From the NCBI RefSeq assembly GCF_003334305.1, contig NZ_QOWS01000079.1: a stretch of DNA of 410 nucleotides. One strand, written 5' to 3'. The translations under genes and the position numbers were made by a program. Below the pieces are notes generated by a model. That model did no database searches. It was not told the DNA's origin and saw only the letters and a program-made list of their open reading frames with translations. This document shows positions 1 through 410 of the stretch, piece after piece (within the stretch, counting starts at the first letter, position 1; the number at the start of each line of letters is the position of its first letter). The stretch comes from Escherichia coli. GTDB lineage: Bacteria > Pseudomonadota > Gammaproteobacteria > Enterobacterales > Enterobacteriaceae.

Positions 1-410
1 CTGGATATCGATATCCCGTATGCGACGGACCCGGCAGGAAACCGGCTGCCGGACCCGGAACTGCACCCGGACAGCACCCTCACGGCGTGGCCGGATAACC
101 GCATCGCGGAAGATGCGCACTATGTCTACCGCTACGATGAATACGGCAGGCTGGCGGAGAAGACGGACCGCATCCCGGAAGGGGTGATACGGATGCACGA
201 CGAGCGGACCCACCACTACCACTACGACAGCCAGCACCGTCTGGTGTTCTACACGCGGATACAGCACGGTGAGCCGCAGGTGGAGAGCCGCTACCTCTAT
301 GACCCGCTGGGCCGCCGGACGGGAAAACGGGTGTGGCGGCGGGAGCGTGACCTGACGGGGTGGATGTCGCTGTCGCGTAAACCGGAGGAGACCTGGTACG
401 GGTGGGACGG
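1..410 (+). CDS. Rhs-family / YD-repeat protein, internal core fragment (5' and 3' partial); polymorphic toxin shell region
   Basis: Frame 1 (codons starting at nt 1) is open across all 136 complete codons, while + frames 2 and 3 contain stops (frame 2: TGA at 185 and 353; frame 3: TAA at 96 and 378, TGA at 138, 300 and 348). Translation: [137 protein letters not shown]. It carries YD-repeat motifs (consensus roughly xYxYDxxGRL) at nt 13-48 (degenerate, [12 protein letters not shown]), 121-153 ([11 protein letters not shown]), 211-246 ([12 protein letters not shown]), 289-333 ([15 protein letters not shown]) and 394-410 (WYGWDG, cut by the window edge). Codon third positions are strongly G/C-biased (CCG, CTG, CGC, GAC, TAC), as expected for a real high-GC coding frame. 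The match to enterobacterial Rhs core is from memory, not a database search. The specific paralog cannot be assigned, so no gene symbol is given. Confidence 0.85.

Follow-up and report, generated by a model that had tools for sequence, protein, structure and literature searches.

The stretch of Escherichia coli DNA analysed here (hereafter 'the window', 410 nt) is an in-frame internal piece of a gene for an RHS element core protein, the YD-repeat shell, which occupies the window from position 1 to position 410 on the + strand. The window is 100% identical to chromosomal E. coli genes annotated as 'RHS element core protein' and corresponds to positions 6001–6410 of the locus L001, inside a coding sequence at 3277–7527. 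Its first base is the first base of codon 909, and it holds codons 909–1045 plus two bases of the next codon. The Rhs gene of strain 504838 is 4,251 nt long and encodes 1,416 amino acids; genes for Hcp and VgrG lie upstream, a gene for 'RHS element protein dsORF-h1' lies downstream, and a complete T6SS gene cluster adjoins the locus. A 336-amino-acid stretch that includes the window matches the Pfam family RHS_repeat (PF05593; i-E 3.2e-4), with a second weak match. Additionally, 12-nt direct repeats at positions 126–137, 216–227 and 291–302 (CTACCGCTACGA and its relatives) each encode Y-x-Y-D and represent the motifs of successive YD repeats. An earlier note, prepared from the letters of the window, had called the gene an Rhs core gene, and it was correct given the identity to annotated genes, the layout of the locus and the RHS_repeat match.

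Published E. coli Rhs subfamilies are rhsABCF, rhsDE and rhsGH, and Rhs proteins are defined by a core-end motif, DPXG-(18)-DPXG, which is followed by a variable C-terminal toxin tip (PMC2935791); that region lies outside the window. Matches to the window are found in 3,720 of 5,426 complete E. coli genomes, at a median of three places per genome, and rhsD of the K-12 derivative DH1 is 91% identical to it. Insertion sequences were seen at two of the loci inspected. On the 3' side of the Rhs gene and dsORF-h1, positions 7539–12092 of L001 hold a nest of such elements (an IS66-like tnpA, tnpB, an ISCro1 transposase and a truncated ISAs1/ISEc1 transposase), and in strain ERL06-2497 an ISAs1 transposase truncates the Rhs core about 230 nt upstream of the site described next.

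The window begins with ctGGATATCGATATCCcg, and the 14 bases at positions 3–16 (GGATATCGATATCC) equal their own reverse complement, forming a perfect 14-bp palindrome to which no strand is assigned. It consists of the codons GAT ATC GAT ATC (D-I-D-I), flanked by the G that closes a CTG (Leu) codon and the C that opens a CCG (Pro) codon. Two GATATC hexamers, the recognition sequence of EcoRV, lie at positions 4–9 and 10–15, each being a GAT-ATC codon pair, and their junction at positions 7–12 reads ATCGAT, the recognition sequence of ClaI, without an overlapping GATC. Frame 1 is open across all 410 bases, is the annotated frame and starts L-D-I-D-I-P; these six residues are codons 909–914 of the Rhs core gene, the D-I-D-I of the palindrome being codons 910–913. 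Outside positions 3–16, the 410-base window holds no other perfect palindrome of at least 8 bp. The G+C content is 64.9% for the window and 6/14 for the palindrome. On all these points the letters bear out the earlier note, which had placed the palindrome at 3–16, GATATC at 4 and 10 and ATCGAT at 7, had read D-I-D-I in frame and had described a local AT-rich patch in a GC-rich gene.

The symmetry can be traced to the codons. The Asp codon GAT is the reverse complement of the Ile codon ATC, and therefore GAT-ATC is a 6-bp palindrome and GAT-ATC-GAT-ATC a 12-bp palindrome. The two GATATC sites and the one ATCGAT site follow automatically because D-I-D-I is spelled GAT ATC GAT ATC. Self-complementarity of the codons supplies 12 bp, and the final G of CTG together with the initial C of CCG extends the symmetry to 14 bp. 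Under the gene's own codon usage (GAT is 42% of Asp codons, ATC is 49% of Ile codons and Leu codons ending in G are 67%), the palindromic spelling of LDIDIP has a probability of 2.8%.

The occurrence of such a palindrome in a window of this size is at the level of chance. A perfect palindrome of at least 14 bp appeared in 3.97% of mononucleotide shuffles and in 4.48% of codon shuffles of the window (n = 20,000 each), and the 50 kb around the window-identical copy contain four perfect palindromes of at least 14 bp, against 3.05 expected at 4^-7 per position. About one window in 25 thus shows a palindrome of this kind by chance, and its occurrence is not beyond chance when many windows are scanned. 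The chance of 2–3% per window given in the earlier note slightly overstated the rarity.

The gene shows a separate compositional peculiarity. The window contains no Dam site (GATC), and the 4,251-nt Rhs gene (L001 3277–7527) has only two, against 18.2 ± 3.2 expected from shuffles in which protein and codon usage are preserved (z = -5.1); of the 256 tetramers, GATC is the most depleted in this gene. The adjacent VgrG gene has a normal number (12 vs 11.9 expected), the surrounding 50 kb contain 3.6 per kb, and Rhs fragments of other genera are likewise GATC-poor. A reporter has been inserted into rhsD with the nearest downstream GATC 5,566 bp away (PMC5376664), and the paucity of GATC in rhsD has therefore at least been exploited before (PMC5376664). 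Foreign origin of the G+C-rich core and selection against Dam, MutH or SeqA sites are both possibilities for the depletion. Avoidance of GATC was also considered as the cause of the palindromic spelling and was ruled out, as none of the alternative spellings seen for D-I-D-I creates a GATC.

Conservation of the palindrome was examined by alignments of four and of ten sequences, by a collection of cross-species loci, by a metagenome scan with a degenerate-codon pattern and by a search with a variant 44-mer, and each of these approaches spoke against it. The cross-species scan took one genome from each species and yielded 23 related loci. The E. albertii locus retains LDIDIP and spells it CTG GAC ATT GAT ATC CCG. 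In E. coli, RhsD-type paralogues read GAC ATC CGC ATC (D-I-R-I) at the site, the second hexamer being replaced by CGCATC (R-I). Among the cross-species loci, another, E. coli-like type of paralogue (L013 and L023) reads GAT ATC CGC ATC. Further afield, the tetrapeptide is D-I-T-I in Citrobacter youngae, D-I-T-L in Yokenella and D-L-[A/T/V/S]-Q in Citrobacter amalonaticus, Trabulsiella and Lelliottia. The third residue is thus variable across the family (D, R, T, A, V or S).

Synonymous variants also occur closer to the window. The metagenome scan used a fully degenerate-codon pattern that admits any spelling of a 14-residue peptide, and it returned 91 stretches: 81 palindromic, seven with GAC ATT GAT ATC, one with GAC ATC GAT ATC and two with GAT ATC GAT ATA. 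Where D-I is retained, the first hexamer can thus be GACATT or GACATC, and the second is GATATA in two metagenome contigs. The non-palindromic variants are 95–99% identical to the window, and those that begin with GAC are nearer to the window than to E. albertii. Within E. coli, a 44-mer centred on the palindrome matches 2,095 of the 5,426 complete genomes, and a 44-mer carrying GGACATTGATATCC instead matches 272 genomes, 270 of them perfectly. Megablast with the palindromic 44-mer requires an exact 28-base word and is blind to central variants; it was supplemented by a 200-nt query, by sampling of hits and by the variant 44-mer query. The earlier note had proposed that homologues keeping DIDI while breaking the symmetry by synonymous change would indicate coincidence, and exactly such homologues are present in E. 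albertii, in 10 of the 91 metagenome stretches and in the 272 E. coli genomes.

Variability around the site was measured on a set of 56 different haplotypes of 500 nt. Of the palindrome's four synonymous sites, three are polymorphic, compared with 46 of 162 other third positions (28%; Fisher p = 0.078, the palindrome being the more variable of the two), and the palindromic 14-mer contains three polymorphic columns against a mean of 2.0 over all 14-mers. The palindrome is no less variable than its surroundings, and there is no synonymous constraint on it. Inside the palindrome-bearing subclade, all 10 E. coli copies that were read (nine sampled copies and the window-identical one) keep the palindrome intact with flanking sites varying; about seven columns in 81 are polymorphic in this subclade, about 1.2 changes are expected in 14 nt, and zero changes are therefore unremarkable. 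Taken together, the comparisons among homologues indicate a lineage-specific palindrome that is inherited by descent in one young lineage and freely lost.

Some of the collected loci carry oddities of their own. A human gut metagenome contig (OQEL01012378.1) has the palindrome, and its ungapped identity to the window downstream is 57%; such low identity means that the copy has an indel or frameshift or that the contig, covered at 1.7x, was wrongly assembled. E. coli-type Rhs cores, with 74–100% protein identity to the query, were also met on short contigs, some at about 0.8x coverage, of seven assemblies labelled Collinsella, Akkermansia muciniphila, Oscillospiraceae, Lentisphaerae, Frankia tisae, Jeotgalibacillus and Bacillota (L006, L008, L013, L022, L023, L026 and L027). 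The Rhs contigs in these non-enterobacterial assemblies are most likely enterobacterial DNA that got there by contamination or mis-binning.

Quasi-palindrome template-switch mutation hot spots occur in E. coli, and a functionless palindrome could in principle have been made in one step by a templated mutation, either through correction of the quasi-palindrome GGATATC|CGCATCC by template switching or through copying of the neighbouring GATATC, with Arg (CGC) becoming Asp (GAT). At the site, the only difference between the window and the paralogue type reading GAT ATC CGC ATC is a run of three neighbouring bases (CGC in the paralogue, GAT in the window), and correction of a quasi-palindrome would bring about just this change. 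The variable third residue in the family, however, makes a replacement in several steps plausible. Moreover, Asp (GAT) stands at the third codon without the full palindrome in E. albertii and in the 272 E. coli genomes, and the series GAC ATT, GAC ATC, GAT ATC is observed in single steps. Since these single-step synonymous intermediates exist, a templated event is unnecessary, and we regard it as very unlikely. The observed spellings suggest instead that ordinary synonymous transitions brought the palindrome to completion. On this stepwise origin, the palindromic spelling would have arisen through ordinary synonymous drift, GAC ATT GAT ATC, GAC ATC GAT ATC and GAT ATC GAT ATC all being observed, and it is frequent only through descent within a young clade of Rhs cores that are about 95–100% identical.

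The palindrome lies exactly at a change of identity between Rhs core types. When RhsD-type and window-type cores are aligned (L001 at about 5760–6400 against L002), nucleotide identity is about 68% over some 250 nt upstream (window coordinates -240 to 12) and 90–98% downstream (13 to 400). Several megablast hits begin at query base 13 because of this sharp divergence boundary between core subfamilies. One mosaic is known from E. coli TC24 (NZ_CP171637.1; window coordinates about -270 to 640), where an Rhs pseudogene has an internal stop. The TC24 sequence is 97–100% identical to rhsD upstream of the site and 95–100% identical to the window type downstream, and the switch of parents falls between window positions 24 and 36, about 10–20 nt downstream of the site.

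This setting is relevant to the proposal that the palindrome extrudes as a hairpin in DNA or mRNA, or as a cruciform, with a structural role such as that of a recombination hot spot shaping Rhs core mosaics or of a translational pause. The palindrome is a perfect inverted repeat without a spacer, it sits at the switch from about 68% to 90–98% identity, and the one mosaic pseudogene crosses over nearby. Against this, TC24 carries the non-palindromic RhsD spelling at the site and represents a single event, and the symmetry is not kept among homologues. The predicted fold is also weak. As an isolated 18-mer, the hairpin has five base pairs, mostly A-T, with free energies of -1.9 kcal/mol (DNA) and -3.4 kcal/mol (RNA); its z-scores are -0.65 (DNA) and -0.89 (RNA), and 52 and 46 of 200 shuffles, respectively, fold at least as well. 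In the minimum-energy DNA fold, the hairpin is lost in a 40-nt context and a 4-bp stem remains in a 70-nt context; in the RNA fold, the 4-bp stem remains in the 40-nt context and the hairpin is lost in the 70-nt context. Cruciform extrusion and SbcCD cleavage in E. coli require much longer palindromes. Rfam covariance models gave no match on either strand at E up to 1, and searches for promoter-like and terminator-like sites found none. The short hairpin- or cruciform-capable functional site that the earlier note had offered as an alternative fails on this evidence, the fold being weak and no better than that of shuffles, and a structural role appears exceedingly unlikely. That the palindrome or its boundary is a preferred crossover point between Rhs core subfamilies has, in our estimation, barely any probability; the TC24 switch sits where good homology begins, and homologous recombination would be expected there in any case.

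A second alternative in the earlier note was that the paired GATATC and ATCGAT sites form a selected target or marker of a host restriction-modification system. The match at the site is exact, twice for EcoRV and once for ClaI, and some small E. coli plasmids, pLG13 among them, do carry an EcoRV system. The EcoRV endonuclease sequence was validated against the PDB, and 72,556 plasmid records yielded it on five small plasmids of E. coli. The genome-wide query was the endonuclease/controller/methylase region of pLG13, and the search covers systems related in sequence to EcoRV; within this scope, DNA for endonuclease, controller and methylase was present in only 6 of the 5,426 complete E. coli genomes, was always plasmid-borne and was absent from the assembly holding the window-identical copy. 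The palindrome in its context, by comparison, is present in 2,095 genomes. Ordinary E. coli DNA, moreover, contains many GATATC sites (the 50 kb around the locus have 26), and within the Rhs gene the hexamer is neither avoided nor significantly enriched (three sites observed vs 1.35 expected, P = 0.14); nor does the count of ATCGAT in the Rhs gene depart significantly from expectation (1 vs 0.69). The GATATC and ATCGAT sites have also been lost by synonymous change in 272 genomes. With the EcoRV system almost absent from E. coli and the sites not conserved, the restriction-modification reading does not hold for a system of the EcoRV type, and its overall probability is practically negligible.

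We therefore interpret the palindrome as a by-product of the coding sequence, without a function of its own, and put the probability of this reading at roughly 93%. The suggestion in the earlier note that the palindrome may be a coincidence imposed by the protein sequence is upheld: the symmetry comes from the codons, its frequency is at the level of chance and homologues break it. The sequence, its frame, the identity of the gene, the missing conservation and the weak folding are demonstrated here; absence of function and the stepwise origin are what we infer. As a negative result, the case illustrates how codon choice alone can produce a perfect 14-bp palindrome complete with stacked restriction sites, and the natural synonymous variants in hundreds of genomes amount to a ready-made control experiment. 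A general filter is suggested by it, as Asp-Ile repeats and other self-complementary codon pairs yield in-frame palindromes unaided.

Several known systems resemble the palindrome in part. With type II sites of the EcoRV and ClaI kinds, it shares an exact sequence match; it differs in showing no site avoidance or conservation and in occurring in a species in which 6 of 5,426 genomes carry the EcoRV system, and its sites are incidental, as are the 26 other GATATC sites of the neighbouring 50 kb. With cruciform- or hairpin-forming palindromes and with intrinsic terminators, the common point is the perfect inverted repeat, but the palindrome is too short, its stem is too A+T-rich, no T-run is present and its position is mid-gene, within a 4.25-kb reading frame. 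What the quasi-palindrome template-switch hot spots of E. coli have in common with the site is the CGC to GAT difference, which such an event would yield; the single-step synonymous intermediates seen here make one unnecessary. The remaining comparison is between the gene and the E. coli Rhs core genes, which encode the YD-repeat shells of T6SS-associated polymorphic toxins. The gene containing the window shares with them the YD repeats, the G+C-rich core, Hcp and VgrG upstream and dsORF-h1 downstream, and it is an ordinary member of the group with no difference from it, the palindrome being a spelling peculiar to one core subclade.
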